DNA of 64,000 nucleotides from Candidatus Hopanoidivoransaceae bacterium (GTDB lineage Bacteria; Actinomycetota; Acidimicrobiia; Acidimicrobiales; Hopanoidiivorantaceae). The notes under the pieces are model-generated. The model did no database searches. It was given only the letters and a program-made list of their open reading frames with translations, and was not told the DNA's origin. A program made the position numbers and the translations under genes. Each line of letters opens with the position of its first letter. Position 1 is the stretch's first letter. Below are positions 4,375 through 60,215 of this stretch, piece by piece. Location: NCBI GenBank assembly GCA_965204495.1, contig OZ241989.1, positions 1,641,214-1,705,213 of the forward strand, in the 5' to 3' direction.

Positions 4375-4397
4375 GATTTGCCCGCCAGCCCCCACAG

Positions 4398-13625: not shown

Positions 13626-13700
13626 GGCGGGGGACGGCGTGTCTTTTTAGGCGAGTTCGCTTGCGTGTCTGAGCATAAAAAAGATGCGCCGTTGCCCGCC
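13626..13700 (+). repeat. Mosaic palindromic intergenic element, copy E1 (core type A, G-rich arm first)
   Basis: ggcgggggacggcgtgtcttttt-[core A]-aaaaagatgcgccgttgcccgcc. It is nearly the exact reverse complement of the copy at 26522-26595. Confidence 0.85.
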
Positions 13701-13737
13701 GTGCTCTAAGAGCTAAACATAGAGGGCACAAGTAAAG

Positions 13738-15468
13738 CTAGCCGATATCGGGGGTGTAGGTGTGGCTGCCGGAGCGCAGGACGGTGCCGGGGCGGGCTTG
13801 GGTGAACTCGCCGTTGCGCACTATCTCTTCGCCGTTGCAGACCACATGATCCATGCCTACTGCTTTGGCGAAAAGCCTGCCTGAGCCGCCGGGGACATCG
13901 TAGTTCATGCGGATTTCCTCAGAGTCGACGGTGGCTTCGTCAAAGACGATCACATCGGCGTGCCAGCCTTCTTGCAGGCGGCCTCGTTCGCTGATACCGT
14001 AAAGCTGAGCTTGCTCGTCGGTCATAAGCTGAATCGCCTCTTCCAATCCGAGCGCGCCGGCTTCGCGCACGCCTCTGCCCAGCAGATAGGTGCTGTAGTT
14101 GAAGCTGGCCAAGAAGTCCAAGTGGGCGCCTGCGTCGGATGCGCCGATGACGGCACGGCTGTCGCGGATCACATCCACGCGGGCTTTCCAATCTTCGTCG
14201 CTCTCTTTGGCGGCGGGAGTTCCGAAGGAAGTCTGCAGCTCGTCGGCTACCACGATGTCGCAAAGGGCGTCCCAAGGCGACTTGCCTTCTTCTTCGGCGA
14301 TCTCCGACACGAGACGGCCTCTGTATTGCTCGTTCTCAGGCGAAACCGTGTCGTAGATGACCTTGCTCTGCCAGTCGGCGAGACCACGCAACGGACTGGG
14401 CTGCTGAGCCAGCTCGTCCAAGTGCCGGCGGCGTTCCGGGTCTTTCAGCATGGCGATCTTCTCGCCTTTGCTGCCGAACATGTGCGTCTCCCATTCGGGC
14501 AGAGCGTCCAAGCCGAACCCGCTGGCAAAGCAGAGGCGCACGCCCAGATTCACAGGCACTGTGAGAGCCACGACCTTGCCGCCTTTCTCACGGGCCACAT
14601 CGCCGGCATGGAGTTTCTCCACGCAGTCGTCATAGTTGGCTGAGTTCACGAGCATCACATTCCAGTTGAGCTGCCTGCCAGCCGCCGCCGACATATCGGC
14701 CATGAGGTTCAAAGCCCAGTCTTCAAACGGCCCCACGCAGGGGATGAGCTCAAGAGAAGTGCCTTCATAATCACGGCAGACGCCAGCCAAAGCCACAAGC
14801 TCGTCTCTGGATGCATAACGAGAAGGCACCATTGCGCCATCGGCATCATTGTGGGTGCGCGCCCAAGAAGACGAGAACCCAAGCCCGCCGGCTTCAAGCC
14901 CGTCGCGCAGCAGCCGTTCCAGTTCCGCCATCTCTTCGGGTGTAGCTTCACGCTTAGTGGACTCTTCGCCCATCACGACCCTGCGAAGAGCAGAGTGCCC
15001 CACCATGAACCCCGCATTAATTGAGAGCGTGCCCTCCATGCGATCCAAGAATTCGCCGTAGGTAGTCCAATCCCAAGGCACCCCGTCCCGCAGCGGTTCT
15101 AGCGGCATCCCCTCAACCCGTGCCAGCATCCGCATGAGATACTCGCCGTCCGCAGGGTTCTTGGTGGAAGAATCAGGCCCGAGAGGCGCAATAGTAAACC
15201 CGCAGTTGCCGCCGATAACGGTCGTCACGCCGTGAAGCGGCGAAGGGCTGAGTGTCGGATCCCAAAATGCTTGCGCATCATAGTGCGTGTGGATATCCAC
15301 AAAGCCCGGCGCCACGATCTTGCCTTCGGCATCTATCACCTGCACAGCTTCCTCGTCTATGCCGTTGACGGCGACAATCCTGCCGTCCTTGATGCCGACA
15401 TTGGCTTTACGGCGAGCCGCGCCCGTGCCGTCAACCACATCTCCATTGCGAATGAGCATATCTAACAT
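13738..15468 (-). CDS. N-acyl-D-amino-acid deacylase (D-aminoacylase) family amidohydrolase
   Basis: 576-aa ORF. The N-terminus MLIRNGDVVDGTG...GIKDGRIVAV...GFVDIHTHYD is typical of this amidohydrolase family. Confidence 0.75.
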   Translation of the reverse strand: MLDMLIRNGDVVDGTGAARRKANVGIKDGRIVAVNGIDEEAVQVIDAEGKIVAPGFVDIHTHYDAQAFWDPTLSPSPLHGVTTVIGGNCGFTIAPLGPDSSTKNPADGEYLMRMLARVEGMPLEPLRDGVPWDWTTYGEFLDRMEGTLSINAGFMVGHSALRRVVMGEESTKREATPEEMAELERLLRDGLEAGGLGFSSSWARTHNDADGAMVPSRYASRDELVALAGVCRDYEGTSLELIPCVGPFEDWALNLMADMSAAAGRQLNWNVMLVNSANYDDCVEKLHAGDVAREKGGKVVALTVPVNLGVRLCFASGFGLDALPEWETHMFGSKGEKIAMLKDPERRRHLDELAQQPSPLRGLADWQSKVIYDTVSPENEQYRGRLVSEIAEEEGKSPWDALCDIVVADELQTSFGTPAAKESDEDWKARVDVIRDSRAVIGASDAGAHLDFLASFNYSTYLLGRGVREAGALGLEEAIQLMTDEQAQLYGISERGRLQEGWHADVIVFDEATVDSEEIRMNYDVPGGSGRLFAKAVGMDHVVCNGEEIVRNGEFTQARPGTVLRSGSHTYTPDIG

Positions 15469-15566
15469 AGCTCAACTCCTTTTGTTGCGAATAATCCCGA
15501 ATTCATAATAGTTGACTTGTCGGCTACTTGCTTGCGGAGTTGGTACTGGTCAGGGTTGTTGCTAGC

Positions 15567-15686
15567 GCAACGGCGGGCAGCGGCGCATCTTTTTTTGGCT
15601 GAACCTTACCCTTTTGTTAGCCAAGTTTTTTCGCTAAACCAGACACGCCAAAAAAAGACACACCGCCCCCCGCCTCACCTTGGAGT
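15567..15686 (-). repeat. Mosaic palindromic intergenic element, copy E2 (core type C, reverse orientation)
   Basis: ggcgggcagcggcgcatcttttttt-[core C]-aaaaaaagacacaccgccccccgcc, plus a conserved flank tcaccttggag. Confidence 0.85.
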
Positions 15687-15689
15687 CAC

Positions 15690-16334
15690 CTAGCTAGGGC
15701 ATAGCTTTTCCATGAACGACCACGACTGTCGGTGTATCGGGGTCGGACCGAGTTGTCGCAGAGCTTCTTTGTGCTTGGGGCTGGGGTAGCCTTTGTTGCT
15801 GGCGAAGTCGTATTTGGGGTAGCTCTCTGCAAGACGTCGCATGAGCCGGTCGCGAGTTACCTTCGCTATCACTGAAGCAGCCGCAATGGAAAGGCAGCAC
15901 CTGTCGCCGCCAACAACGGTCTGCACTCTGCCTGTCTGCACGAAATCCCAGCGGCCGTCTAGCAGTAAATAGTCGGGGGGATCTGTCAGCCCGTTCAAGG
16001 CTCGGTGTGCTGCTCGCCGCTGGGCTTCAGACATCCCGAATTCATCGCACTCTTGCGGCAGTGCGTGCCCTACCGACCAATCCAAGCACCATGCCAGTAT
16101 CCGCCCGTAAAGCTTCTCCCGCTCCGCCTCAGAAAGCATCTTGGAATCCCGCACCCTATTGATGCGCCTGTCTGGAGGCACCACAACCACCCCCACCGAT
16201 ACCGGCCCCGCCCAAGCTCCCCTCCCCACCTCATCACACCCCCCCACCATCCCAAACCCCGCCTGCCACAGCTTCCTTTCCTCCCCCAGCCGGGGAATCT
16301 CATCCTCCCCCCGTCGGGAAATCTGATGTTTCAT
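15690..16334 (-). CDS. rnhB: Ribonuclease HII
   Basis: 214-aa ORF with GCDEVGRGAWAGPV and the C-terminal GYPS..H pattern. Confidence 0.9.
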   Translation of the reverse strand: MKHQISRRGEDEIPRLGEERKLWQAGFGMVGGCDEVGRGAWAGPVSVGVVVVPPDRRINRVRDSKMLSEAEREKLYGRILAWCLDWSVGHALPQECDEFGMSEAQRRAAHRALNGLTDPPDYLLLDGRWDFVQTGRVQTVVGGDRCCLSIAAASVIAKVTRDRLMRRLAESYPKYDFASNKGYPSPKHKEALRQLGPTPIHRQSWSFMEKLCPS

Positions 16335-16427
16335 AGATTCAAAAATCCCTTCAAAAACCCTTTACACAAACCTCGCGCCAAACTCCAGAAACCACCCACT
16401 CAGCGACTTTACACAAAAATCCAGTTA

Positions 16428-16531
16428 GGCGGGGGACGGCATGTCTTTTTTGGGCGTATTGCGGTCAAATCCCAGACCCACTAAGAAACCGGGTAGCACC
16501 GTAGCCCAAAAAAGATATGCCGTTGCCCGCC
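16428..16531 (+). repeat. Mosaic palindromic intergenic element, copy E3 (core type B)
   Basis: ggcgggggacggcatgtctttttt-[core B: gggcgtattgcgg...gggtagcaccgtagccc]-aaaaaagatatgccgttgcccgcc. Confidence 0.85.
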
Positions 16532-16562
16532 CACCAGCAACCCAGTCCAAAATGAATCACTC

Positions 16563-18023
16563 CTAAGCCGGCCAATTAATCGACTGAACTTCCGAATAAG
16601 CATGCAACCCCCAAACCCCCCTGTCTCGCCCGACCCCAGACATCTTGAACCCGCCAAATGGCGCCTCCATATGCGGAGCCACCGTGTTCAAGGCGACATT
16701 GCCCGACTCCACCCGCTTGGCAAGCTCAAACCCGCGAGCCAAATCGCCTGAATACACATAGCTGAAAAGCCCGTAGTCGGAGTCGTTGGCCAGTGCCACA
16801 GCGTGGTCGTCCCCGTCGTGCGGCACCACCACGACCACCGGCCCGAACACTTCCTCCCTCACCACATGCATCTCCGGCTTGCAGTCGGCCAGCAGCGTAG
16901 GCGCAACGAAATAGCCCGGCAGATCAGGCCGTTCCCCGCCGCACACCAGAGTGGCACCCTCGTCTTGGCCGCCGGCGATAAAGCTCTCAACCCGCTCGCG
17001 ATGAACCTCGGTGATGACAGGCCCCACGATGGTATCCCGCTCGCAAGCATCCCCGACTTTCAAAAACTGCGACACGGCAGCCAGTTTCTCCACAGTCTCG
17101 TCGTAGATATCACGATGGCAGATGACCCTGGTGGGGGCCGTGCAGATTTGCCCGGAGTGGAAGCCCCAGACGCTGGCGATGCCTTGGACGGCTTTGTCCG
17201 TGTCGCAGTCTTCCGTCATTATCATGGCGCCTTTGCCGCCTAGTTCCATTAGCAGCCGCTTCATCGTCTTGCCGCCGGCTTCAAAGATTTTCGCCCCCAC
17301 GACAGAGCTGCCCGTGAAGCTGATCATGTTCACATCCGGCGAATCCACTAGGGCTGCGCCGACTTCCGCGCTGGCTCCGCTCACCACATTCACCACGCCC
17401 GGCGGGAACACCTCGTCTAATGTGCGCCCCAGCTCTATGACCGCCAGCGGGTCTTGCGGGGCGGGCTTGATGATGACCGTGTTGCCCATAGCCAGTGCGG
17501 GCGCGATCTTGCCGGCCACATTGGTAAGCGGGAAGTTGTAGGGGGTGATGCAGGCCACCACGCCTGCTGGCTGGCGCACCACATAGGCGCCCAGCAAGGC
17601 AGCTGGCGCCAAAGCGGTGGCGGGCGAGGTGAGCGGAGCGACAGGCACATTCACATCCATAGGCCGCGAGTAGTAGCGGAAACGGTCTATGAACGCTCCC
17701 GATACCTGCATGGTCTCGGCGACATTGATGGTGGAGCCTGTTTCGGCCTGCACCAGATCCACCCAGTCGGGGCATCGCTGCGCTATCAAGTCTGCTGCTT
17801 TGGCGAGATAGCTGCAACGCTCGGCCATGTCGGTGTCTCGCCAGCTGGGGAATGCTTGTTTTGCCGCAGCTGCCGCTTGGTGCGCGTGCTCGGCTGTGGC
17901 TTCGGGGGCATGGCCGACCACTTGCGTGGTGTTCGGGTCAATGACCTCGTAGGTGCCACCGGGAACTACCCGCTCGCCGCCGATAACGAGATCCCATACT
18001 TCGTCAACATTTATATTGTTCAT
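16563..18023 (-). CDS. NAD(P)+-dependent aldehyde dehydrogenase
   Basis: Motifs ELGGKGA and FHSGQICTAPTR are present. I moved the start from the track (18071) to Met17 (ATG 18023-18021) because the first 16 codons lie inside repeat element E4. Confidence 0.85.
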   Translation of the reverse strand: MNNINVDEVWDLVIGGERVVPGGTYEVIDPNTTQVVGHAPEATAEHAHQAAAAAKQAFPSWRDTDMAERCSYLAKAADLIAQRCPDWVDLVQAETGSTINVAETMQVSGAFIDRFRYYSRPMDVNVPVAPLTSPATALAPAALLGAYVVRQPAGVVACITPYNFPLTNVAGKIAPALAMGNTVIIKPAPQDPLAVIELGRTLDEVFPPGVVNVVSGASAEVGAALVDSPDVNMISFTGSSVVGAKIFEAGGKTMKRLLMELGGKGAMIMTEDCDTDKAVQGIASVWGFHSGQICTAPTRVICHRDIYDETVEKLAAVSQFLKVGDACERDTIVGPVITEVHRERVESFIAGGQDEGATLVCGGERPDLPGYFVAPTLLADCKPEMHVVREEVFGPVVVVVPHDGDDHAVALANDSDYGLFSYVYSGDLARGFELAKRVESGNVALNTVAPHMEAPFGGFKMSGVGRDRGVWGLHAYSEVQSINWPA

Positions 18024-18056
18024 GGTTTCAAGATTAGTCTTTTTGCTTATCTGTGT

Positions 18057-18203
18057 GGCAGGCAACGGCACATCTTTTTTGGCTCCACGGTGAGGCGGGG
18101 GGCGGTGTGTCTTTTTTGCACGACTTCAATGGTTTAGCGAAAAAACCCATACGGCAAAAGGGTAATGCGGAGGCAAAAAAGATGCGCCGCTGCCCGCCGT
18201 TGC
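18057..18203 (+). repeat. Mosaic palindromic intergenic element, copy E4 (extra half-arm + core type C)
   Basis: A solitary arm ggcaggcaacggcacatctttttt sits at 18057-18080. It is followed by ctccacggtgaggcggggggcggtgtgtctttttt-[core C]-aaaaaagatgcgccgctgcccgccgttgc. This is the reverse complement of E5. Confidence 0.85.
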
Positions 18204-18252
18204 TTTAGCAACAGCCTGCTAAAGAAAAAGCAACCCCCCGCCCCCTGAAGAA

Positions 18253-18483
18253 TCAACTCTTGGCTTTGGCGGCCCGTCTGCCCTTGGCTTTCGGGGCAGG
18301 CTCTTCAGCATCCTCCTCGTCTTCTTCCCCCTCGGCATCGCCTTCTTTCATTCCCTTGCGGAACTCCTTCTGGGCACTGCCGAGCGAGCGAGCCAGCTTT
18401 GGCAGCTGGGTGCTTCCGAAAAGCAGCAAAAGCACCACGAGGATGATTATCCATTCCCCCTGTCCGATGGTAACGCCAAGCAT
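18253..18483 (-). CDS. tatA: Twin-arginine translocase subunit TatA/E
   Basis: 76-aa ORF. A single TM helix is followed by FGSTQLPKLARSLGSAQKEFRKG and an acidic tail. Confidence 0.85.
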   Translation of the reverse strand: MLGVTIGQGEWIIILVVLLLLFGSTQLPKLARSLGSAQKEFRKGMKEGDAEGEEDEEDAEEPAPKAKGRRAAKAKS

Positions 18484-18537
18484 GTCTCTAGCTTAGCAGG
18501 TTTGTGCGGCAAAAAGCGCGCGGGCGGGGAGTATCTG

Positions 18538-18837
18538 TCAGATCGCCTGACGGTCGGAGCGAATTGCCACGACATTCTGATGGCGCAGCAGTCGACGTTC
18601 CCGGCGCAACACTCGCCGTTCCCGCTCGCTCATGCCGCCCCAGATGCCGAACTTCTCGCCGTTCTGCAAGGCGTACTCCAAGCACTCCTCTTTCACCACG
18701 CAGCCACGGCAGACGCTCTTGGCCTGCGCGCTGGAGACGCCTCGCTCTGGAAAGAAGAGGTCGGGGTCGATGCCAAGGCAGTTGGCTTCCTGCTTCCAAG
18801 AGAAGTCAGTGTCTTCTGGAATTGTCAAGTTCCTCAT
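18538..18837 (-). CDS. WhiB-family (Wbl) Fe-S transcriptional regulator
   Basis: 99-aa ORF with four Cys (C..x..C-x2-C-x5-C: CLG...CRGCVVKEEC) and the GIWGG turn followed by a basic tail. This is an actinobacterial hallmark. Confidence 0.9.
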   Translation of the reverse strand: MRNLTIPEDTDFSWKQEANCLGIDPDLFFPERGVSSAQAKSVCRGCVVKEECLEYALQNGEKFGIWGGMSERERRVLRRERRLLRHQNVVAIRSDRQAI

Positions 18838-19021
18838 TGTTTTCTCTTTCTGTTAGATGGTCGGTTGTCGGGTGTAAATAGCTGGCTTCTGCCGCTGAAA
18901 CCCTATAAGCCTAAGCCTATCAGCAACTTACAGCCATGTAATTTACACCCATGTAGTTTGCAGTCTGCCATAGAATTCCCCCCTTTGTCAAGTGCAATTT
19001 CAGAGAAAATTTTTGCCAGCT

Positions 19022-19141
19022 CAACGGCGGGCAACGGCGCATCTTTTTTGCCTCCGCATTACCCTTTTGCCGTATGGGTTTTTTCGCTAAACCATTGAAG
19101 TCGTGCAAAAAAGACACACCGCCCCCCGCCTCACCTTGGAG
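19022..19141 (-). repeat. Mosaic palindromic intergenic element, copy E5 (core type C, reverse orientation)
   Basis: caacggcgggcaacggcgcatctttttt-[core C]-aaaaaagacacaccgccccccgcctcaccttggag. Confidence 0.85.
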
Positions 19142-19273
19142 CCACCGAGCTACCCTCCACCACCAGCTGCAAAAGCCCCAGCCCAATTCCTCAAAAATTC
19201 TTTACACAACCCACCCCGCCACACTCCAGCAAACCGCTATCCAAGCAAAAGAAAGCCATCGAACCACAGGCAA

Positions 19274-19377
19274 GCAGGGGGACGGTGTTTGTTTTTTGGG
19301 CGTATTGCGGATGAGCTCCAGACCAGGCTAGAAAAAGGGTAGCACCGTAGCCCAAAAAATAAATGCCGTTGCCCTGC
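19274..19377 (+). repeat. Mosaic palindromic intergenic element, copy E6 (core type B)
   Basis: gcagggggacggtgtttgtttttt-[core B]-aaaaaataaatgccgttgccctgc. Both arms carry the same GGCGGG->GCAGGG change. Confidence 0.8.
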
Positions 19378-20731: not shown

Positions 20732-22378
20732 TTACGATGTGCTGTCAGACGGCTTGTTTGCAGATAATGTGCTGTCAGACAAGTTGCTGTCAGACAAGTT
20801 GCTGTCAGACGACTTGCCTTCAGACGCGACCCGAACCGCAGCAGTGCCCACGAGCACAACCCCTAAAGCCGCCAGCATAGGCGCGGGAGGCAAGCTGAAA
20901 GCCAAAAGGAGGCTTCCGAACAAGCCGCAAACTGCAGCGATGCGAACGAAGACCTCGGCAGCTATCTGCGCTCTGCTCTGGGTTCGCTGAGCTATTTTTT
21001 CCCGCCGAGCCAGCGTGCGCTTGCTAGGGGGACGAGGTTCCAGCTGGTTGCGCTCGCGAAAACGATCGTCCAAAGTGCCTTCTGGCGGCGGTTTTACGGG
21101 CTTTTTGGGCAAGCGCAAGGCCAGAAAGCACAATACGGCCCCGTAAACAAGTGCGCAGAATGCTGCGAATGCCAAGCCCGCTCTGATGCTCACGAGCAGC
21201 ACCAGCACAAGCACGACCGCCCCGGATGTCGCATCGCTGTGGCGGGCAAACGGAGAGAGGGGTGGCGGACTTTGCTCTTCCTCCCAAGCAGAGGATTCGG
21301 GAGCCGGGTCAGCAGAGGGTTCGGGGGCCAGGTCAGCGGAGGATTCGGGGGCCAGCCCATCGGAGGGTTCACGAGCCGGCACAGCGGAGGATTTGAGAGC
21401 ACCAGACTTCCCAATGGCAGCAGCCACCGAGCCCGACACGCTGCGAAGCAGCGGCAACAGCACGCCGGCGCAAGCGATCACCACGCAAAGGCGAATGATT
21501 CCGCCCAGCCTGTTGAAACCGCCGAAATTGGCTGCTCGCACGAACGGGTCGTCGCCGATGGCAAGGTTGGCAGGAGACGACGAGGCGAACAACGATAGCG
21601 TCACCAAAATATAGACGGCGAAGACTGCCGCGATCATTCCTGCGGTGCCCCAAGGTATTGAAAACTGCGGACGCTTGGGACGCAAATCGGCAGTGCGGGC
21701 GTAGCCGGCAAAAGCAAAAAACAGCAACCCCGCAGCCGAGACTATGCCCCAACCTGCATCAGCCCCTTCTGAGAGATTGGAGATGTCTGCTTGCCGGCTG
21801 GAAGCCGATGCCACCGTCACCAGCAGCAGCACCAGAAGCACGAACCAAGCGATCAAGCGGTTGGCTGTGACGCCCAGCTCGTGAGCAGTGGCCTTGCGGT
21901 CGAAAAGCTTGGCTGTGTGCGCGCCTGTTGCGGGCGTGCCGGAGGTCTTCTTCGGTGTGCCCAAAAGGTCAGCCCAATTGACCCGATTGGCCAGCACTCC
22001 AGCCGCTACCACCCCGACTGCTGTCAGCTCCACTGCGTCGGGTGCTGCATAGGTGGCGATGACGAGGGCGAGCACGCAGCAAGCCATGATCTGTCCGCAG
22101 AAAAGGCTCCAAGCGGCAAGCGTGCTCAGAATTCCTGGCCGGGCAGTCTTGCCAAGCAGCGATTCCGCAAGAGTCGTTTCGCCTTCTGCTAGCCGCACGG
22201 CCGAGGTGGCGCAGCAGGCTGCTATCAAAGCCGCTATCGCCCAGCTCAAGAGCACCCAGCCTCCGGCTTCGTCAGCAGCTGCCCCCAGAGCTGCGAACAG
22301 CCCTGCTCCGAGCATCACTCGCATCCCTGCCAGCAGCACATCGCCGGTGCCGAGCTTGCGGCCGGGAGCAGTCAGCAC
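20732..22378 (-). CDS. APC-superfamily permease-like polytopic membrane protein with repeat-rich C-terminal extension
   Basis: Multiple TM segments are present, with an N-terminal pattern GAGLFAALGAAADEAGGWVLLSW. The track start (22540) overlaps the tRNA on the other strand. I use the in-frame GTG at 22378; ATG at 22324 is an alternative. The start is uncertain. Confidence 0.5.
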   Translation of the reverse strand: MLTAPGRKLGTGDVLLAGMRVMLGAGLFAALGAAADEAGGWVLLSWAIAALIAACCATSAVRLAEGETTLAESLLGKTARPGILSTLAAWSLFCGQIMACCVLALVIATYAAPDAVELTAVGVVAAGVLANRVNWADLLGTPKKTSGTPATGAHTAKLFDRKATAHELGVTANRLIAWFVLLVLLLVTVASASSRQADISNLSEGADAGWGIVSAAGLLFFAFAGYARTADLRPKRPQFSIPWGTAGMIAAVFAVYILVTLSLFASSSPANLAIGDDPFVRAANFGGFNRLGGIIRLCVVIACAGVLLPLLRSVSGSVAAAIGKSGALKSSAVPAREPSDGLAPESSADLAPEPSADPAPESSAWEEEQSPPPLSPFARHSDATSGAVVLVLVLLVSIRAGLAFAAFCALVYGAVLCFLALRLPKKPVKPPPEGTLDDRFRERNQLEPRPPSKRTLARREKIAQRTQSRAQIAAEVFVRIAAVCGLFGSLLLAFSLPPAPMLAALGVVLVGTAAVRVASEGKSSDSNLSDSNLSDSTLSANKPSDSTS

Positions 22379-22481
22379 ATCTGCTGTCAGTGCTTCGGCA
22401 GGCAGCCCATCAGAAGCCAGCGCGTCGGCTTCCGGGAGGTTGTCAAAAGAAGATTCTTCTGCTATAGTTGCAATAACCCGT

Positions 22482-22555
<74 letters not shown>

Positions 22556-22560
22556 CAAAG

Positions 22561-26521: not shown

Positions 26522-26595
26522 GCAGGGCAACGGCGCATCTTTTTATGCTCAGACACGCAAGCGAACTCGCCTAAAAAGACACGCCGTCCCCCTGC
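26522..26595 (-). repeat. Mosaic palindromic intergenic element, copy E7 (core type A, reverse orientation)
   Basis: gcagggcaacggcgcatcttttt-[core A]-aaaaagacacgccgtccccctgc. A second solitary arm gcagggcaacggggcattt at 26641-26659 overlaps the permease stop codon. Confidence 0.85.
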
Positions 26596-26657
26596 TACCC
26601 TGTTTGCTTGCTGAACCTACCCTGTTTTCTTTGCTCAACCGCAGGGCAACGGGGCAT

Positions 26658-27551
26658 TTAGTGATGGCGGACATCTGAGCGGTGTAGCAGTCGGTTGCCT
26701 ATGTAGTTGACCGAGAGCAGGGTCAGGAAGATCACTAGAGCGGGGAAGATCGTGAGGTGGGGGGCGCTTTCCAGTTTGCTGCTGCCAGCTGCCAAGATGC
26801 CGCCCCAGGTGATATCGGGGGCGGGCACGCTCTTGCCGATGAAACTCAGCGCGCCTTCGGCGATGATGATGATGGCAAAAGCCAGAAAAGCAAACGACAT
26901 CATCACAGGCAAAATATTGGGCAAGATTTCTCTGAAGATGATGCGGACGCGGCGAGCCCCCATGCCTTTGGCTGCCGTTACGAACTCGCGGTCGGCGAAG
27001 CGGATGGTCTGCGCTCTCGCCACGCGAGCGATTGCCGGAGTGGCGAGAATGGACACTGCGATGATCACATTGCGAAGATTCTGCTCCAGCACTGTGACTA
27101 TGAGCAAGGCAAACATGAGAGCAGGCAGAGAAAGCATGACATTTATGGTGCCGCCGATGATGTCGTCTGTCCAGCCTTTGAAATAGCCGGAGAAGAGACC
27201 TAGCAAGCCTCCCACTATCGTTCCGAAGGCAGTAGAAGCCAGAGCGATGAGCAGCGACAGGCGGCTGCCCCAAACCACCCTTGAGAACATGTCGCGCCCC
27301 AGTTCGTCTGTGCCGAAGAGCGCAGACCAGCCAGGGCCCAGGTTGACATTGCGCGAGAATCCTTTCGGATCAGGCAGGAATCCCATGAACGGCGCGAACA
27401 GCGCGAAGATGACGACCGCCGCCAGCCATCCCGCAGCCAGAACCAATCCGATTTGGAAGACTCTGCGGGGCACCGCTTGCTTAGCCTCTTTTTCGCCCCT
27501 TCGCATGATGGGACTAAGGTCTGCTCTGGAGACGGAAGACGGGGAGGTCAT
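26658..27551 (-). CDS. ABC transporter permease (DppC/OppC-like)
   Basis: 297-aa polytopic ORF. It overlaps the upstream permease by 4 nt, and peptide/nickel-type permease architecture is seen. Confidence 0.8.
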   Translation of the reverse strand: MTSPSSVSRADLSPIMRRGEKEAKQAVPRRVFQIGLVLAAGWLAAVVIFALFAPFMGFLPDPKGFSRNVNLGPGWSALFGTDELGRDMFSRVVWGSRLSLLIALASTAFGTIVGGLLGLFSGYFKGWTDDIIGGTINVMLSLPALMFALLIVTVLEQNLRNVIIAVSILATPAIARVARAQTIRFADREFVTAAKGMGARRVRIIFREILPNILPVMMSFAFLAFAIIIIAEGALSFIGKSVPAPDITWGGILAAGSSKLESAPHLTIFPALVIFLTLLSVNYIGNRLLHRSDVRHH

Positions 27552-28510
27552 CGGGCGCGCACTCTCGGATCCAGAGCGGGATAGATCGTATCCACCAAAG
27601 TGTTCAGCAGCACGAAGGCTGTCGCAATGACGGCGCAGATAGATTGAACTATCAAAAAGTCCTGGGCGTAGACAGAGGCGATCAGGAACGAACCGATCCC
27701 GTCCACATCAAAGAGGAACTCCACGATAATCGTGGAATTTATGAGCTGCGCCGCGTTGATGCCTGCGATCGTAACCAAGGTGAAGCTGGAAGGTCTCAGC
27801 ACATGTCTGAAAAGCAGCCGCCTGACGGGCATCCCTTTGGCTCTCACAAAAGCCGCGTAGTTCTCGTCCAAGTTCTGAGACATGTCGTCTCGCAGCAGAC
27901 GCACATATACGGGCAAAGCCCCGGCTGCCAAGGTAATTGCCGGCAACGCCAGCGATTTCCAGTGTTCAATCACGCTTTCGGTCGGCCCGACATACCCCCC
28001 CAGAGGGAACCAGTCAAAGCGGACGCTGAAGAGCAGTGCCAATATCACTCCCAGCACATAGGCAGGAACGGATAGCAGCCCGAACGAGGTGCTGGAGACG
28101 AGCGAATCAAACCACGAGCCACGCCGATAAGCCGCCAACATGCCGAGCGGAACCGACACCAGCAAAGTGAGCAGCATCGTGTATAAGACCAGCCACAGCG
28201 TGGCGGGCAGCTTCTGGGCGAGGCTGGTGGAGACATCGATTCTGTTGATATACGACTCGCCGAAGTAGCCGGTCAGAGCGTCGCCCAGCCAGCTGGCGTA
28301 GCGCACGAACAGATTGTCGCCGAAGTTGTTGTCAGATCTGCACTCTGCCAGCAATTCTTCTGTGGCCCCTGCGCCGAGCGTCACCTCGCAGGGGTCGCCT
28401 GGCACTAGATTCAGCAGCCAGTAGGTTATGAATGTAACGATGAGCACAACGGCCACAAGCCATACGAGCCTGCGGCCGATGTGGCGAGCCAAGAACGATG
28501 TAGATGACAC
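27548..28510 (-). CDS. ABC transporter permease (DppB/OppB-like)
   Basis: 320-aa polytopic ORF with the typical N-terminus RRLVWLVAVVLIVTFITYWLLNLVPGDP. Confidence 0.8.
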   Translation of the reverse strand: MSSTSFLARHIGRRLVWLVAVVLIVTFITYWLLNLVPGDPCEVTLGAGATEELLAECRSDNNFGDNLFVRYASWLGDALTGYFGESYINRIDVSTSLAQKLPATLWLVLYTMLLTLLVSVPLGMLAAYRRGSWFDSLVSSTSFGLLSVPAYVLGVILALLFSVRFDWFPLGGYVGPTESVIEHWKSLALPAITLAAGALPVYVRLLRDDMSQNLDENYAAFVRAKGMPVRRLLFRHVLRPSSFTLVTIAGINAAQLINSTIIVEFLFDVDGIGSFLIASVYAQDFLIVQSICAVIATAFVLLNTLVDTIYPALDPRVRAR

Positions 28511-35129: not shown

Positions 35130-36500
35130 CTATGTTTCAGTATTCTCAACCAGAGCAATGGCAGGCGGCGCAATATCCAGATTGTCAGCATCCAACCCGC
35201 CAGCCTCTAGTTCGCCGACCTCTAGCTTGCCAGCCTCCAGTTCGCCGATCTCCAGCTTCCCCCTAGTCAGAAGCTCATCAGGCAGCGACTCCGCAAGCGA
35301 CTTCTTCGCTTCCACGCCAAGCTCTTCAAAATCGGCGGCCTTCTTCATCAGGTTGCCTCTCCCAGAGTGAAGCCGCTTCATGGCTGTATCGTAAGACTCT
35401 TGGGTTCTGCCGAGCCTTTCGCCCACTTCTCTCATAGCTTCCACCACTAGGCGAATTTGGTCGAGCAGCCCGTTGGCAGTCTCAACGATTTTCAAGGTGT
35501 TCTGCCCTTGTGCAGCAATCCGCCAGAGCTGTGCCACAATCAGCAAAGACGGCAAAAGCGTGGTGGGGGAGACGATGTAGACTTTCCGCTCCATGGCCGC
35601 TCCGAGCAGCTTCTCATTGTGTTGCAGAGCTGCCTGCAAAGCCGGCTCGCTGGGCACGAACAGAAACACGAATTCAGGCGAGTTCAACTCGGGAATTTTG
35701 CTGTAGTCTCGCTCGGCGAGTTCGTTCACGCGGTCTTCCACTGCTTTGGCGTGCTCGTCCAATGCTGCTGTCGCTTCTTCTTCGGTTTCAGCCTCAACGC
35801 AGCGAACAAAGGCTGTCAGGGAAGTCTTGGCGTCAATTATCAAATGCTTGCCCTCTGGCAGATGCACCACTGCGTCGGGCCGCAGCAGATTGCCTTCGCT
35901 GCCTCTGTACGACCTTTGCGTGTCGTATTCTTTGCCCTTCGTCAAGCCTGAAGCTTCCAGCACTCGTTCTAGCTGCAGCTCTCCCCATACCCCTTGAGTC
36001 CTATGCTCGCCACGAAGGGCTGTGGTCAGCGCGCTGGCGTCTTCAGAAAGCTGGCTGTTCTGTTCCATCAAGAGTTTGATAGTCGTTTCCATCTGGGCCT
36101 GCTGCTTGGTGTCTTGCGTGTGGATGCTCTCCACTTTCTCGCGAAACTCCTTTATCTGCGTCTTCATCGGGGCAAGCAAGGTGTTGATGCTCTCCGAGCT
36201 GGTCTCTTTGAAGCTCTTGGCTTTATCCTCCAAAATCTTGTTGGCCAGGTTCTCAAACTCCGTAGCCATCAATGCCTGATTCTGCTGCGCCGCCGCCTGA
36301 GCAGCCTTGATCTCAGCATTCTCCAGCAACAATGCCGTGCGCTCTTCGCGCAGCGCATCCCGCTCCCCCCGCAGGCTTTCGCCTTCAGCCTTAGCAGCCC
36401 CTAGCTCCCCCGCAAACTCCCTCGTCGTCATCCGCCTGACGGCTGCCCACACGACAACCCCCACAACCAACCCCACCACTATGGCAATAACTGCTGTCAT
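35130..36500 (-). CDS. rmuC: DNA recombination protein RmuC
   Basis: 456-aa ORF with an N-terminal TM, a long coiled coil and the nuclease-like core LRPDAVVHLPEGKHLIIDAKTSLTAF. A C-terminal 30-bp tandem repeat encodes GKLE(I/V)GELEA. Confidence 0.8.
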   Translation of the reverse strand: MTAVIAIVVGLVVGVVVWAAVRRMTTREFAGELGAAKAEGESLRGERDALREERTALLLENAEIKAAQAAAQQNQALMATEFENLANKILEDKAKSFKETSSESINTLLAPMKTQIKEFREKVESIHTQDTKQQAQMETTIKLLMEQNSQLSEDASALTTALRGEHRTQGVWGELQLERVLEASGLTKGKEYDTQRSYRGSEGNLLRPDAVVHLPEGKHLIIDAKTSLTAFVRCVEAETEEEATAALDEHAKAVEDRVNELAERDYSKIPELNSPEFVFLFVPSEPALQAALQHNEKLLGAAMERKVYIVSPTTLLPSLLIVAQLWRIAAQGQNTLKIVETANGLLDQIRLVVEAMREVGERLGRTQESYDTAMKRLHSGRGNLMKKAADFEELGVEAKKSLAESLPDELLTRGKLEIGELEAGKLEVGELEAGGLDADNLDIAPPAIALVENTET

Positions 36501-37198: not shown

Positions 37199-40100
37199 TT
37201 ATCTGGTGAAGATTGATTGGAAGACTTGGTAGGTTTGGGTGTCTTCGTTCCAGCGTATGGTTAGGGGCTGGCGGGTTCTGGTGAAGATGTAGGTGGTGTC
37301 TGCGGGGGCGATGCTCATGAGAGGGCGATAGGGGGCGTTTTCGCCTGTGGTTAGTCTTCTTTGGGCTGTGGGGTGGCAGGGGAGCGATATTGACCATCTT
37401 CTGCTGCGTGTGCTGTAGCTGGCTATGGCTATGATGCCTTGCTGGTTGCGGCAGTCGGTGAGGGTGGGGTCTAGCAGGAAGTCGGTGTCGTCTGTGCGGG
37501 TGATGCCTTGGGGGATGCTGAGAGTAGACCAGCCTGTGGTTAGGCGCATTCTGGTGGTGCCGCCGCCTAGGTTGCTGGTTCTCATTTCTCTGTTGGTGAC
37601 GGCTTCTTCGGTGCGGAAGGAGACTCTTGTGCCTGCCGGTATTGCCTGCGAGGATCGGGTTGCGCGTGTCCAGGTTTGCCTGGCGGTGTTCCATGTGTAG
37701 ATGGTTTGGGTTGAGCCGAGGTTGAAGGCTTGGCGTATTTGGCCTGGGGTGGTGCCGCCTTGCTGTGCTGTGAGGGTGTTCCATCTGGGGCCTGGCTGGT
37801 CGGGTTCCAGGGTCGTGGTCGGACGAGAGGGGTCGGGTATCGTGGTCGTGGTGGTCGTGGTGGGCGGCGGCGGTGTGGGTCGCCGTGCGGGCGGGTCTAT
37901 CGGCTGGATCGGGCCAGCGGGGCGTTCCTCGGGTTCTACGGGTGCTGGGGTGATGGTGATGTGGACGGTGGCCAGGTGGGTGTCGCCGCCTGTTGATGTG
38001 TAGGTGATGTGGAAGTCGGCTTCGCCTGGTGTGCTGCCGGCTCTTATGGTGTAGACGCAGCCGTTGCGTGTTACCGAGGAGATTTCTGGGTCTATGTCGG
38101 TGGCGTCCAGGCATCCGATGGTGTAGGCGTCGTTGCCGGTGCCGTCTGTTGCGTAGGAAGACAGGTCTATGCCTTGTGCGCTGTTGGCTTGGAGGGTTAT
38201 GTCTGCGGGGGCGGTGTAGACGATGTCAGACGCCGGGCCGATGTTGATTGTGAAGCTGGCATTGTTGGTGTTTCCGCCGCTGGAGGTGTAGGTGAGGGTG
38301 AAGGTGGTGTTGCCCTGGGCTGCTGTGGCTGCGGCGGTGATGGTGTAGCGGCAGCCGTTGCGGTGTATGTCGGTCAGCTTGGCTGGTTCAGTGGCTGTGG
38401 CATTGCCGCAGGTTATGGAATACGGGCCGTCCGTGGCGTAAGAAGCGAGGCTGATCGTGCGGGTGTTGCCTGCGCCTATCCGCAGCCTGTCGGGGCCAGA
38501 AATCGGCGGCGGTGCGAAGACGATGCTGGATGTTGGCGTGACAGCCACTGTGATGCTGCCGTTGCGGGTCGCTCCGCCGCTGGAAGAATACGGCACGGTG
38601 AAGCTGCCGCTGCCCGTGCTCGTGCCCGGGGTCACCACGAAGTTGCAGGTGTTCGCGGTGCGGGCTACGGATGCGAACACGGACGGCACGCCGGTGGCGT
38701 CGCCGCAGGTTATGGTGTATGCGCTGTCTGCGGCGTAATCTGATGCGTCAATAGTCAAGGTGCTGCCTATCTGAACCGACAGACCAGTGGGCGCGGTGAA
38801 GGCGATGCTGGAACGCGGGCCGATGGTGATGGCTATCTGCGAGTTCAGGGTTGCTCCGCCGGTGGAGGTAAACGGAATGGTGAAACTGGCAGAACCAGCG
38901 ATGCTGCCTGCTCTTACCGCATAGCTGCAGCCCGTGCGGGAGACGCTCGCGATTCTGGGGTTCACGGCTGTTGCGTCGCCGCAGGAGACTGTGTAGCCGG
39001 TGTCAGCCGCGGTGGAAGCATCCACGGTGATCTGGCGGCCTGCTGCCACACTCAGACCTGTGGGAGCGGTGAAAGTAATAGTGGACTGCGGGCTGATGTT
39101 GACCGATATTGTCCCGGTGTGGGTGGCACCTCCGCTGCTGGTGTAGGGCACATTGAAAGTCCCGGTGCCTGTGCTAGACCCAGGCGTTATCGTGAAGTCG
39201 CAGGTGTTGGCGGTGCGAACCACCGATGTGAGCGATGCCGAGCGATTAGTAGCGTCAGCGCATTGCAGCGAATACGGCCCGTCGGACGCATAATCGTTCG
39301 CGTGAACTAGCAGCGTCTCTCCGACATGGACATCCAACCCCGAAGGAGCCGTGAACACGATACTGGAAGCCGGCCCCACACTCAGCGAAATCGTGCCGCT
39401 GAGAGCAGCTCCGCCCGCAGAGCGATACGGCACAACAAAGCTAGTCGCACCTTGATTAGCGGCGGCGGTGATTTCAAAGCTGCAGCTAGAACCCGTGTGG
39501 GTAACAGAAGCAAGCCTGCTGGCGTTGACACCAGTAGCGTCCCCGCAGGAGATCGCATAGCTGCCGTCTGCGGCATAGCTGCCGACATCAATAGTCCTAG
39601 CCGTGCTCACGGGGATGACAATGCCCGAAGGCGCGCTATAGACAATATTTGAAGCAGCCCCGATAGTAACAGACACCTGCCCGTCCCTTGTGTGCCCGCC
39701 GTCGGAGCTATACGGGATCGTGAAGGTAGCAGCACCGGTCATGCCAGAAACAGGCGTGATGGTGAAGCTGCAGCCGTTGCGGGTTATGTGATCTATCCGA
39801 GCGTGAATGCTCCTGGCGTCCCCGCAGGAAATCGTGTAGCTGCCGTCTGTGGCATAGCTGGAAGCGTCAATCGTCAAGGTGCGGTTGTGGCCCACCGTCA
39901 AAGCATTCGCCCCCACAGGAGCGGTATAGACGATAGTGGAAGCCGGCCCGACCCCGATGGTGAATTCTTGGTTCAGCACATGCCCGCCGGCGGAGCGATA
40001 AGGCACAGTGAAAGTGGCATCGCCCTGCTGCGATTGGGTCAGGGAGCTTATCGGGTTGATGGTGTAGCCGCAGCCGTTGCCCGAAGAGCTTCTCGTTACT

Positions 40101-43100
40101 GATGTCAGCTTCGTGCTGTCCACGCCGGTGGCGTCTAGGCAGGTAATCGTGTAGTTCCCGTCCCTCACATAATCCAAAGCGTCTATTGTGCGGGTGCGGT
40201 TGATGCCGATCTTCAGAGCGGGGTCGGGCGCGGTGAACACGATGGTAGAGGGCTGGCTTATGGCTATGGACACTGTGCCCGTAGAAGTAGCTCCGCCGTC
40301 TGAAGTAAACGGCACTCTGAAAGTGGCAGTTCCTAGGCTGGCTGTGGTGCGAGGCGCAGCGGCGAACACGCACGGGCTGGCTTGAGCGTCAGGGCGGGTA
40401 ACCGACGAGAGCCTGGAATGGACATTGGTAGCATCGCCGCAAGTCACGGTGTAGCTGCCGTCAGTAGCCGCGTTGGAGAGATCCACGCTCAAAGTCCTGT
40501 TCCGCCCCACTTGCAGACCAGCAGGAGCAGTGTAGACAATCGCGCTGTCGGGGCCGATGTTGACGGTGAAAGTCCCGCTGGCGGTAGCTCCGCCTGTGGA
40601 AGAAAATGCCACAACAAAAGTAGTGTCGCCCTGCGAGCCCACAGCCAGAGTATCCACTGGATCAACAGTGAAAGAACACCTGCTGCCGCTGGAGCTTCTG
40701 GTGACCGTCATCCTGTTGGCATCCACCCCCGTAGCATCCGCGCAAGACACCGTATAAGCAGCGTTCTCGCCGCTCACAGCAGCCAATGCGTCAATCACCA
40801 GCGTGCGGTTGCGGCCTATCTTCAAGCCTGTGGGCGCCGTGAAGGTGATCGCGCTGTCGGGGCCGATATTCACAGTAATCCGGCCCGTAGCGGTAGCTCC
40901 GCCGTCCGAGGTGTAAGGAATCGTGAAGCTGGTGTTGCCCTGCAAGCTCTGAGCCAATGTGTCAACAGGATCAATAGTGAAATCGCAGCTGCTGCCTGTG
41001 TGGGTTACCGTCAGCCTCGCGGCATCCACCCCGGTGGCATCGCCACAAGTCACCGTGTAAGCGGCATTCTCGTTTACATAGTCCAAAGCGTCAATGCTCA
41101 AAGTCAGGTTCCGGCCTATCCGCAACCTGTTCGGCCCGCTAGTCGGCGGGGCGGTGAAGCGGATGTTGCTGTCGGGGCCTACCTCCACCGAGATGGTCTC
41201 GGTGCGAGTGTGCCCGCCGTCTGAAGTGAATGCGATAGCGAAAGTGGCTGTGCCGACAGTTGCGAAGTTGTTGGGGTCTATCGTGTAGCTGCAGCTATTA
41301 GCCGTGCGTGCGACCGAGGTGAGCCTGCTGTGAATAGCGGTGGCGTCGCCGCAGGTGATGGTGTTGTTGCTGTCGGACTCCGAAACATAGCCGGAAGCGT
41401 CAATAGTCAAGGTGCGGTTGCGGCCGACCAGCAGCCCGGTGGGAGCATTGTAGGTGATAGTGCTGTCTGGGCCGATATTCACCGTGAATGTCCCAGAAGC
41501 CGTAGCCCCGCCTGTGGAAGTGAAAGCCACAGCGAAAGTGGTGTTGCCCTGCAAGCCGGTCGCCAGAGTGTCCACGGGATCGACAGTAAACACGCACCTG
41601 CTGCCTGTGGAGCTTCGGGTGACCGTCATCCTGTTGGCACTCACTCCGGTAGCGTCAGCGCAGGTAACCGTGTAGGCAGGATTCTCCGTCACCGCCGCCA
41701 GAGCGTTGATAGCCAAAGTCCTGTTCCGCCCCACCTTCAAACCAGTCGGCGCAGCGAAGACGATATTGCTGTCGGGCCCCACATTTACAGTAAACAAAGC
41801 GTTGCGAGCGTGCCCGCCTGTGGAAGACAGCGGCACCGTGAAGGTAGTGTTCCCCTGCAGCCCCGCAGCCAGAGTGTCAACAGGATCAACGGTGAAGGTG
41901 CAAGTATTGGCAGTGCGCGCTACAGAAGTGAGCCTGGTGTTGTCTATCCCGGTAGCGTCCCCGCAAGTCACGGTGTAGGTGCTGCTCTCTGTGAAGTGGT
42001 CTGTAGCGTCAATCTCCAAAGTCCTGTTCCGCGCCACCCTCAAGCCAGTCGGCGGGGTGTAGACGATGTTGGAATCCGGGCCCACTGTCACAGAAATCGC
42101 CCCAGCCACGCTGTGGCCGCCCTCAGAAGTGTAAGGCACGGTGAAGCTCGCAGAACCAGCCACATTCTTCGGATTGATGGTGAAAGTGCAGCTTCTGCCC
42201 GTGTGGGTTACAGACTGCAGCTCCACAGTGTCAATGCTGGTGGCATCCCCGCAGGAGATCGCGTAGTTCGTGGGGTTGGCTTCAACAGCATAGCCAGACA
42301 CATCAACCGTGATCGTGCGGTTCTTCGCCACCGAAAGCGCAGGAGACGGAGGAGTGAAAGTGATAGTAGAAGCCGGCCCGACTGTTATGGAGAACACTGC
42401 GTTCTCAGTGTCTCCGCCGTCAGAAGTCAAAGGCACGGTGAAGTTGGCAGAACCCTGCTGCGATTGCGTCAGAGTGCTGATCGGGGTGATCGTGTAGCCG
42501 CACCCGTTGCCGCTGGAGTCGCGCGCCACAGATGTCAGCTTCGTGGTGTCTATGCTGGTGGCTGTGCCGCAAGTAATCGTGTAGCCGCTGTCGGTGGCAT
42601 AGTCCAAAGCGTTGATAGTCTGAGTCCGATTGATGCCCACCTTCAAATCAGACGGCGCGGTGAACTGGATATTGGAAGCGACCCCCACATCTATGGAGAT
42701 GGAGCGGGTCGTGGTAGCTCCGCCGCTGGAGATGTAAGGCACAGAAATAAAAGCAGTGCCCGTGCTGGTAGCGGCAGTGATGGGGATGCTGCAGCCGGTC
42801 TGCGCGCCGAGGCTTATCAGAGCAGAGAACTCCGTGATAGTGCCGCAAGAAATCGTGTAGCTGCCGTCTGTGGCGTAGCTTGACACATCCAAAGTCAAAG
42901 TGCGGCTGGCAGCCACAGCAGGATTAGACGAAGGCGCCGAGAACACGATAGACGAAGCAGCCCCCACGGTTATCTGCACAGCCCTGCTGATCGCATGTCC
43001 GCCAGTAGATGTATAGGGCACAGTGAAACCAGTAGACCCCTGTGTGCCGTTCAAAACTATCCTGTAGCGACAGGAGTTAGACAGACGAGTCACGCTGGTT

Positions 43101-55927: not shown

Positions 55928-56050
55928 TTTGACCTCACGCCGTGCCAGCCGCGCATCGCACGGGGGGGGGTCGCAGACGGCGATTTCATGCCAGCCTCAA
56001 GCCGCGCCAGCCGCGCATCGCACGGGGGGGGGGTGTCGTAGATGACTTTT
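55870..56050 (-). repeat. Triplicated ~62-nt start/leader unit of the giant gene, each copy with a poly-C (minus strand) tract: C9 (55900-55908), C9 (55962-55970), C10 (56024-56033)
   Basis: Minus-strand reading gives three units. Unit 1 is ATGAAGTCGCTGCGTAAGA-C9-AGTGTGATGCGCGGCTGGCACGGCGG. Unit 2 is ATGAAATCGCCGTCTGCGA-C9-GTGCGATGCGCGGCTGGCACGGCGTGAGGTCAAAATGA. Unit 3 is AAAAGTCATCTACGACA-C10-GTGCGATGCGCGGCTGGCGCGGC. Confidence 0.9.
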
Positions 56051-56079
56051 TCCTATAGGGGATTAATCTCATGTAAGGC

Positions 56080-56108
56080 ATTATAGCAATCAGAAGTATG
56101 TTTGACAC
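56080..56108 (-). promoter_or_regulatory. Candidate sigma-70-type promoter for the giant gene (GTGTCA-17 nt-TATAAT)
   Basis: Minus-strand TATAAT lies at 56085-56080 and GTGTCA at 56108-56103, in the only AT-rich stretch upstream of the leader repeats. This is sequence pattern only. Confidence 0.4.
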
Positions 56109-56170
56109 AGCATGACAAACAAAAAAATTGTGAGATTTTTACAGGTCAAGAATCCCCCCCCGCCATATCG

Positions 56171-56354
56171 CCAGCCGCCGACCCTAGCCCTACCCAGCCG
56201 CCGACCCTAGCCCTACCCAGCCGCCGTGCCTAGCCCTACCCAGCCGCCGTGCCTAGCCCTAGCCAGCCGCCGAGCCTCGCCCTAGCTAGCCGCCGAGCCT
56301 CGCCCTAGCTAGCCGCCGAGCCTCGCCCTAGCTAGCCGCCGAGCCTCGCCCTAG
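56171..56354 (+). repeat. 23-bp tandem array x8 (ccagccgccgagcctcgccctag family) with stepwise variant gradient
   Basis: The units, read directly, are 2x ccagccgccgaccctagccctac, ccagccgccgtgcctagccctac, ccagccgccgtgcctagccctag, ccagccgccgagcctcgccctag and 3x ctagccgccgagcctcgccctag. Confidence 0.9.
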
Positions 56355-58764: not shown

Positions 58765-58808
58765 ATACAACCCATAATCCCCAATAGTCGTGATATTTGG
58801 AGAGTCCT

Positions 58809-59116: not shown

Positions 59117-59120
59117 GAGT

Positions 59121-60183: not shown

Positions 60184-60215
60184 CGTTTTGGGTTTTGTAG
60201 CTGGGTGTAGCAGTC

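Follow-up and report, generated by a model that had tools for sequence, protein, structure and literature searches.

Mosaic hairpin repeats with exchangeable cores at inversion breakpoints in a deep-branching actinobacterial clade

Repeat elements and their genetic context

The window analyzed here, a 64,000-nt stretch of DNA to which all coordinates refer unless another contig is named, carries a family of imperfect palindromic elements in its intergenic gaps. All genes between 12.3 and 28.5 kb lie on the minus strand and are functionally unrelated. According to Pfam, their products include a thiolase, an amidohydrolase, RNase HII, an aldehyde dehydrogenase (Aldh), TatA, and WhiB, as well as a SerB-like HAD phosphatase, a permease, a POR/DUF6537 oxidoreductase, and ABC permeases. 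Four of these genes are central to what follows: those for RNase HII (15690-16334, minus), Aldh (16563-18023/18071, minus, with two possible starts), TatA (18253-18483, minus), and WhiB (18538-18837, minus). The elements consist of a left (L) and a right (R) arm enclosing one of three cores (types A, B, and C), and they mark breakpoints at which neighboring housekeeping genes have been flipped in related strains.

A preliminary description of this DNA had proposed seven such elements (E1 to E7) in both orientations, and arm searches confirm them. Two arm consensus sequences, searched for in the window with up to 3 mismatches, gave 6 L-arm and 7 R-arm matches, against none in 100 dinucleotide-preserving shuffles; a looser search (up to 6 mismatches) recovers all seven elements as L-core-R units. 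The type-A element E1 (13626-13700, plus), composed of an L arm, a core of about 27-28 nt, and an R arm, is located between the amidohydrolase and thiolase genes, while its counterpart E7 (26522-26595, minus), with outer arms of the GCA/TGC kind, is located between ABC permease and POR genes. Type B is represented by E3 (16428-16531, plus) and by E6 (19274-19377, plus), whose arms are the most divergent, with compensated changes. The type-C elements are E2 (15572-15674, or 15556-15688 with conserved flanks, minus; arms 15572-15595 and 15651-15674), E4 (18094-18198, or 18080-18213 with flanks, plus; arms 18094-18117 and 18175-18198), and E5 (19026-19130, or 19013-19144 with flanks, minus; arms 19026-19049 and 19107-19130), the last being placed upstream of WhiB. 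E4 and E5 constitute a 132-nt inverted repeat with 95% complementarity, and E1 and E7 have 53 nt in common at 100% in opposite orientations, in agreement with their initial description as mutual reverse complements.

Two further claims hold in part. The elements were said to occupy every intergenic gap of the region, which is mostly the case, with the exception of the element-free 55-nt gap between TatA and WhiB (18484-18537). Two half-arms were said to overlap a start and a stop codon. One of them, an R-arm remnant (26641-26659, minus) followed by the usual right flank (ggttgagcaa), does overlap the stop codon of an ABC permease gene by 2 nt. The other, a solitary R arm (18057-18080, minus) upstream of the Aldh gene, is the leftover of a former type-B element and overlaps only the GTG start of the longest open reading frame (ORF) of Aldh. 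This overlap is probably an artefact of ORF calling, because the enzyme is called at 486 aa in several relatives, which would place the start at the ATG at 18023 (vs. 502 aa for the longest frame).

Architecture and pairing of the arms

Each unit opens with a left flank of about 12 nt (TCCAAGGTGA-like) and closes with a right flank of about 14 nt (GTTGNNCTAGCAA-like). Between them, the core is enclosed by two 24-nt arms, the first G-rich with T6 at its end and the second with A6 at its start. The conserved unit thus exceeds the arms on both sides. Tandem units are joined by an outer linker of the form ggttgaac...attcgggta. The cores are mutually unrelated and measure 24-28 nt (A), about 56 nt (B), and 55-57 nt (C), giving elements of about 72-105 nt.

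Arm pairing was evaluated in 75 instances from the window and 14 related loci (15 loci in total), corresponding to 61 distinct elements with flanks and 24 distinct arm pairs. Standard pairs occupy 95.1% of the cells in the 24 arm pairs, compared with 87.5 ± 0.7% in shuffles, and sliding the 3′ partner by 1-3 columns reduces the pairing to 50-70%. Changes on both sides were found in 8 of the 24 pairs, a count reached by 1 of 500 shuffles, whereas the observed paired fraction and covariation score were reached by none of the 500. Arm complementarity is maintained by compensated substitutions, and the mirrored changes first noticed by eye in the seven copies have statistical support across the distinct arm pairs.

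The asymmetry between the arms is equally real. On the G-rich strand, the non-Watson-Crick positions are G·U wobbles plus one G·G; G·U pairs make up about 14% of the cells, and the complementary strand would pair at only about 81%. The G7·G46 mismatch is retained in 23 of the 24 arm pairs and the adjacent G8·U45 wobble in all 24, while the wobbles at columns 15 and 16 have repeatedly been turned into U-A, C-G, or A-U pairs. Because the former are kept while the latter are converted, the asymmetry reflects more than inheritance. As the fixed G·G/G·U at positions 7-8 are almost never repaired, the hairpin is strand-specific: only the G-rich strand folds well. RNA folding of the G-rich and C-rich strands yields -52.6 vs. 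-38.8 kcal/mol for E1, -57.5 vs. -43.3 kcal/mol for E4, and -55.2 vs. -42.3 kcal/mol for E6; for types A and C, the G-rich strand is favored by about 14-15 kcal/mol. DNA folding parameters favor the strands in the same direction.

Core exchange, tandem copies, and decay

Related sequences were obtained as long-read metagenome contigs from ENA by exact-protein look-ups of the RNase HII and WhiB of the window. The look-ups returned the same strain (99.7% identical) and about ten relatives. Members of the main group have pairwise identities of 94-97%, whereas L020 and L025 reach 88-89%.

Comparison of orthologous sites shows that different cores occur between identical arms, which substantiates the proposal that the three cores are interchangeable. 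At the TatA-Aldh site (E4), the same arms hold core C in the window and in L023 and core A in L002 and L017. At the site upstream of WhiB (E5), core C is found in the window, L002, and L022-L024, and core A in L016, L019, and L021. Core A itself varies in a genome-wise manner: it has 28 nt at both the E1 and E7 sites in the window and 24 nt at both sites in L017 and L024, while the outgroup (L020 and L025) has 28 nt at E1 and 24 nt at E7. The outer arm type is constant per site, being GGC/GCC at E1 and GCA/TGC at E7. The elements evolve in concert, with short tracts being copied between dispersed units via the roughly 20 nt of identical inner arm on each side.

Copy number varies as well. The site upstream of a lipoprotein gene holds one or two tandem copies, depending on the strain (at least 10 strains), and L026 has a 57-nt duplication of an R arm plus flank. 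The window retains TTGCCCGCC, the final 9 nt of an R arm, at 4378-4386 (plus), where L027 has two full elements (about 400 nt). In L019 and L023, the L arm and core of E7 have been deleted at the microhomology AGATGC; in L002, E1 is gone within a 146-nt deletion; and the junctions in L019 and L020 retain 10-13 nt of an R arm. At the site of the solitary arm (18057-18080), L022 carries an intact L-coreB-R element with the same 3′ flank (acacaga.aagcaaaaagactaatc). No target-site duplications were detected beside the arms or the extended conserved flanks in the 25 copies compared.

Type-B elements are always adjoined, on the side of their L arm, by a module of about 90 nt (CTTTACACAA ... ACTCCAGCAAACC). 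In the window, one copy (CTTTACACAA...ACTCCAG; 16340-16427, plus) is located just upstream of the RNase HII start, and another (19190-19273, plus) beside the L arm of E6; the two are 72-74% alike. The module also accompanies the type-B elements of L021, L022 (7100-7224), and L027 (17230-17330). Its role might be that of a promoter, or it might belong to the type-B unit as an additional component; a search of the cores and of the CTTTACACAA module, by eye and by scan, gave no convincing sigma-70-like site.

Inversion of two gene blocks

Two blocks of genes are bracketed by inverted pairs of elements. The Aldh-RNase HII block (15675-18056, minus), which includes E3 between the two genes, is flanked by E2 and E4, while the WhiB-TatA block (18199-19025, minus), including the WhiB promoter region, is flanked by E4 and E5; E4 is the edge common to both, and E2 the outer edge of the former. 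With the flanking HAD and amidohydrolase genes taken as the reference, all four combinations of block orientation are seen across the window and 10 relatives (88-97% identity). L002, L017, and L023 share the arrangement of the window; in L021, only WhiB-TatA is inverted; in L020 and L025, only Aldh-RNase HII; and in L016, L019, L022, and L024, both. E3 travels with the Aldh-RNase HII block in every arrangement. The breakpoints map to 15579/15703 (E2, in comparison with L020), to 18045/18246 (the solitary arm and E4), and to the points where arm and core meet in E4 and E5.

The arrangements are incongruent with relatedness (L019 and L023, for instance, are 96.9% identical yet differ at both blocks); therefore, the events must be recurrent or have been spread between strains by recombination. 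Arrangements also differ in the number of elements at the junctions. L021 corresponds to the L019 arrangement with one extra inverted copy, the segment between the two copies being flipped, and has E6 and its module between RNase HII and amidohydrolase. This pattern fits an insertion followed by homologous recombination, or a replicative inversion. A CREE-mediated inversion in Neisseria likewise shows one copy vs. two at the breakpoint (PMC3454330; CREE, Correia repeat enclosed element). Contigs in different states represent different strains, 3-6% diverged, and not variants of one population; programmed switching is thus not shown by them. The idea that L017 and L024 are two inversion states of one strain, raised by their common coverage of 49.6x, was rejected, as they are only 95.2% identical.

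Genomic distribution and host

The preliminary description had left open the existence of further copies. Five more are present in the same strain within 4.5 kb left of the window, which gives at least 12 copies in 68 kb, and one relative has seven copies in 21 kb of the corresponding region left of the window. Elsewhere in the relatives, copies adjoin dxr and hom and lie between tyrS and the 16S gene; in all, copies are present in at least three other chromosomal regions. These distant loci were found by searching protein databases with translated elements. A 232-aa query returned 11 proteins, all from this clade, in which the gene call had been wrongly extended through an element, while a 787-aa six-frame chimera gave 1 match. 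Because these loci were found via the elements themselves, the element density there is skewed toward high values. The family is spread over several regions of the chromosome and confined to one deep-branching actinobacterial clade.

The extended gene calls have a practical side, as in-frame GTG and ATG starts in the arms lead to wrong N- or C-terminal extensions in automatic annotation. They concern Aldh (18024-18071 in the window), homoserine dehydrogenase (P0001), TyrS (P0007), and the lipoprotein (P0002-P0012), with sites in the relatives at L026 10001, L027 10001-10300, and L030 1297-1459.

The 16S sequence from a relative's contig with a full rrn operon matches Actinomycetes at only 84-85%, which, together with the presence of WhiB, places the host as a deep-branching actinobacterium with a genome of about 2.1-2.6 Mb. 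Conservation of the elements exceeds that of their surroundings: between orthologous elements of sister species, arms are 95.8% identical and cores 86%, compared with about 55% for the 60-nt flanks, and the sister ortholog of E1 matches the arms at 21-24 of 24 positions.

The arms match no named repeat or RNA family in Rfam, plasmids, phages, GTDB species genomes, or JGI metagenomes. At the gathering score, Rfam recognizes only tRNA-Met and none of the elements; with E-values of up to 5, one spurious miRNA hairpin match appears (20.5 bits, the gathering score being 91). Nothing real was obtained when E4 was compared with plasmids and phages by BLASTN. The exact arm GGGGGRCGGYRTGTCTTTTT is present in 4 stretches of GTDB species genomes and 9 of JGI metagenomes, all of them partnerless single arms and hence dismissed as chance matches. 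The family is real and previously undescribed, representing intergenic palindromic repeats in a lineage where none had been described.

Comparison with known repeat systems

Many features recall the repetitive extragenic palindromes (REPs) of Enterobacteria and Pseudomonas and their composite forms, namely bacterial interspersed mosaic elements (BIMEs) and REP doublets forming hairpins (REPINs) (PMC3333891, PMC3116915). In both cases, two slightly different inverse repeats form a hairpin of about 75-105 nt, substitutions are compensated, and a stem mismatch is conserved. Both are extragenic and mosaic, the heads being joined by variable linkers (represented here by cores A, B, and C) and the tails likewise (represented here by the outer flanks); strains differ in the number of tandem units, and solitary units occur as decay products. 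The G·G with its adjacent G·U is analogous to the stem mismatch of REPs and may have a comparable role. The TnpA(REP) transposase binds single-stranded REP only when the stem contains its mismatch, and recombines BIMEs in vitro (PMC3333891), while the doublet hairpin is the replicative unit of REPINs (PMC3116915). On the other hand, the single arms of the present elements are not palindromic, they have no conserved 5′ GTAG/GTGG foot, and no REP-associated tyrosine transposase (RAYT) was found in the DNA examined. The host is actinobacterial instead of proteobacterial, and three unrelated cores are exchanged at orthologous sites.

CREEs from Neisseria (PMC2649163, PMC3454330) are similar in having terminal inverted repeats of about 24-26 nt and core-based size classes, in being intergenic next to gene starts and ends, in leaving solitary repeats as deletion remnants, and in occurring at an inversion breakpoint with one copy in one strain and two in another. 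In contrast to the present family, they duplicate a TA target, of which no sign was seen here, and their cores all derive from one sequence by deletion. Their definition does not include strand-specific wobble pairs accompanied by compensated changes.

Integron attC sites are likewise imperfect palindromes with a variable center located between gene cassettes, and in both cases the site could be read as a single strand that is folded and identified by its fixed imperfections. This identity was rejected: the present elements occur in both orientations, no integrase is encoded nearby, and the genes in between are housekeeping genes in syntenic order. No strand carries the RYYYAAC/GTTRRRY pair at its two ends, a GTTRRRY-like motif being found at one end of some copies only.

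Rho-independent terminators share the GC-rich stem beside T/A runs and the location at gene ends. In the elements, however, the run of six T separates the stem arm from the loop, which measures 24-57 nt, and none of the elements passed a terminator scan, so that an intrinsic terminator was also rejected. Together with the better fold of the G-rich strand and the share of G·U pairs, this upholds the original view, which favored a strand-specific, REP/BIME-like hairpin and not a simple terminator.

Possible mode of propagation and alternative explanations

We read the elements as a clade-specific, REPIN/BIME-like family of hairpin-recognized intergenic repeats, which evolves in concert and drives local inversions, and consider the chances of this reading to be about even. 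The hairpin with its fixed G·G/G·U distortion might be the recognition structure of a trans-acting, structure-specific enzyme, most likely an HUH/Y1-like single-stranded DNA nuclease-transposase acting on extruded or single-stranded DNA. Such an enzyme would copy and recombine the units, while the arms would be similar enough to permit the conversion of short tracts and, where copies are inverted, homologous or replicative inversion.

Several observations weigh against this reading. No Y1/RAYT protein or other transposase or recombinase was called in the roughly 100 kb of the clade examined, and Pfam scans of the window, its low-GC part at 56-64 kb included, detected no transposase or recombinase, only RmuC being present. 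Strict membership in the REP class fails on this count as well as on the non-palindromic arms and the lack of a consistent 5′ GT(A/G)G: GTAG arises only by overlap in GCA-type arms (gggtaGCAGGG) and not in GGC types. Folded as single-stranded DNA, 5 of 6 single arms with flanks do no better than shuffles (z from -1.1 to +1.2), the exception being the left arm of E1 with its local flank (z -5.1), which is treated as site-specific. Arms as self-folding REPs were accordingly rejected, since single arms are not palindromes. No clean insertion was found; recent movement is not demonstrated, because a deletion or the remains of an arm are present at all well-resolved sites without an element. Host recombination alone could account for core exchange and inversion, selection on RNA would suit the G·U pairs equally well, and the number of copies per genome is an extrapolation only.

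The elements might act in cis as RNA, by stabilizing 3′ ends, providing processing sites, or insulating genes, with the DNA rearrangements as side effects. We regard this as unlikely but worth keeping in mind: G·U wobbles are tolerated and C·A is not, the G-rich strand folds as RNA at -52 to -63 kcal/mol (z from -4.4 to -7.7), nearly all copies separate functionally unrelated genes, and RNA-level roles are documented for CREE and REP elements (PMC2649163, PMC2229807). Orientation is nevertheless random with respect to transcription (at co-directional sites, the G-rich strand is sense in about 6 cases and antisense in about 6), which argues against a role in cis while leaving room for one. No U tract follows the stem, no Rfam family matches, and G·T is the most stable mismatch in DNA too. 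Alternatively, the elements might be passive, i.e., old, duplicated intergenic palindromes homogenized by RecA-dependent conversion and template switching at hairpins during replication, with no dedicated machinery; core swaps, deletions, and inversions would then arise incidentally. This would agree with the remnants at element-free sites, the use of microhomology by deletions, the core variants shared by copies within one genome and differing from orthologs, and the lack of a called enzyme gene in the DNA examined. Conversion alone leaves unexplained, however, why the G·G/G·U at positions 7-8 stay unrepaired while other wobbles are repaired, how the units spread to the unlinked hom, dxr, and tyrS-rrn loci, and why arms remain at 95.8% identity between species when the flanks have fallen to about 55%; we therefore find it quite improbable.

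Three further explanations invoke an enzyme of another kind. If the elements were ordinary MITEs (miniature inverted-repeat transposable elements), deletion derivatives of insertion sequences (IS) of the DDE type, the arms would serve as terminal inverted repeats to be bound in double-stranded form, and the three cores would represent different deletion remnants. The 24-nt imperfect terminal inverted repeats, the size of 72-105 nt, and the noncoding, intergenic location in both orientations would suit this, as would the parallel with CREEs in size classes, solitary repeats after deletion, and the inversion breakpoint (PMC2649163, PMC3454330). Its probability is nonetheless low, as target-site duplications are lacking at the 25 compared copies, conserved sequence runs asymmetrically past the arms, and the cores are unrelated and exchanged at fixed sites; neither the mirrored arm changes nor the preserved mismatch is required by binding of double-stranded ends, and no parent IS with these ends was found in plasmids, phages, GTDB species genomes, or JGI metagenomes. 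A similarly low probability is given to a bolder variant, in which the hairpins would be substrates of a structure-specific recombinase that reads the G·G/G·U, copies units, swaps cores as cargo, and reshuffles the WhiB-TatA and Aldh-RNase HII cassettes; if true, cassettes would be shuffled in the chromosome by a system different from REP/RAYT, DDE-type MITEs, and integrons. Least credible, indeed very improbable, is a dedicated invertase flipping the two cassettes as a regulated switch. The bracketing of both blocks by inverted copies in the window, the four orientation states, and the incongruence with relatedness (as in the 96.9% identical pair L019 and L023) speak for it; but none of 12 loci has a recombinase gene within 10-20 kb, the junction elements vary in number from state to state in addition to the change in orientation, the contigs belong to strains 3-6% diverged rather than to one population, and the copies elsewhere bracket nothing.

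To our knowledge, repeats of the REPIN/BIME type are understood almost entirely from proteobacteria. The present family extends the same logic, with a strand-specific hairpin, a conserved stem defect, mosaic linkers, and concerted evolution, to an uncultured actinobacterial lineage, without the palindrome that defines REPs. Strains with 88-97% identity provide natural experiments in core replacement, tandem gain and loss, and independent inversion of two blocks. They represent a tractable case for asking what maintains such repeats and whether they actively restructure gene order, including the orientation of the WhiB regulator and TatA.

Other features of the window and related contigs

Beside E7, two ABC permease genes (26658-28510) are only 70-75% identical at the protein level in L017, L019, L023, and L024, whereas the neighboring genes are 95-99% identical in the same four relatives. 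This difference suggests that recombination may have replaced the allele of the transporter cluster, the exchanged segment having one of its limits near E7.

The gene for the RmuC-family protein (35130-36500, minus) is located 16 kb from the inversion-prone region. The family was first found via E. coli mutants with raised inversion at short inverted repeats.

All genes around a tRNA-Met gene (CAT anticodon; 22482-22556, plus) lie on the other strand. The longest permease ORF (20732-22540) runs into this tRNA gene, so that the true permease start must be further downstream.

In L002 (18443-20225) and L029 (12636-14433), an N6/N4 DNA methyltransferase gene and a gene for a 263-268-aa protein with no Pfam family on record are situated between a Peripla_BP_6 gene and its neighbor. 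The pair is absent from the window strain and thus constitutes a strain-specific insertion resembling a restriction-modification system.

The right-hand part of the window contains extensive repeats of other kinds. A single ORF of 6242 aa (37199-55927, minus) is made up of repeats, dozens in number and 60-85% alike, with a unit length of about 300 nt (about 100 aa); its N-terminal 642 aa have no Pfam match, and the product is probably a giant surface or adhesin-like protein. The region at 56000-64000 has a lower GC content (49-52%, vs. 58-60% elsewhere) and encodes a Schlafen/AlbA_2 and HATPase_c_4 protein (56884-58764), with several ORFs nearby that have no Pfam match. Near-perfect tandem arrays are formed there by a 23-nt unit repeated 8 times (56170-56355) and by 24/49-nt units (62292-62422), and one and the same 21-nt unit occurs 8 times at 58829-58993 and 16 times at 63570-63906.

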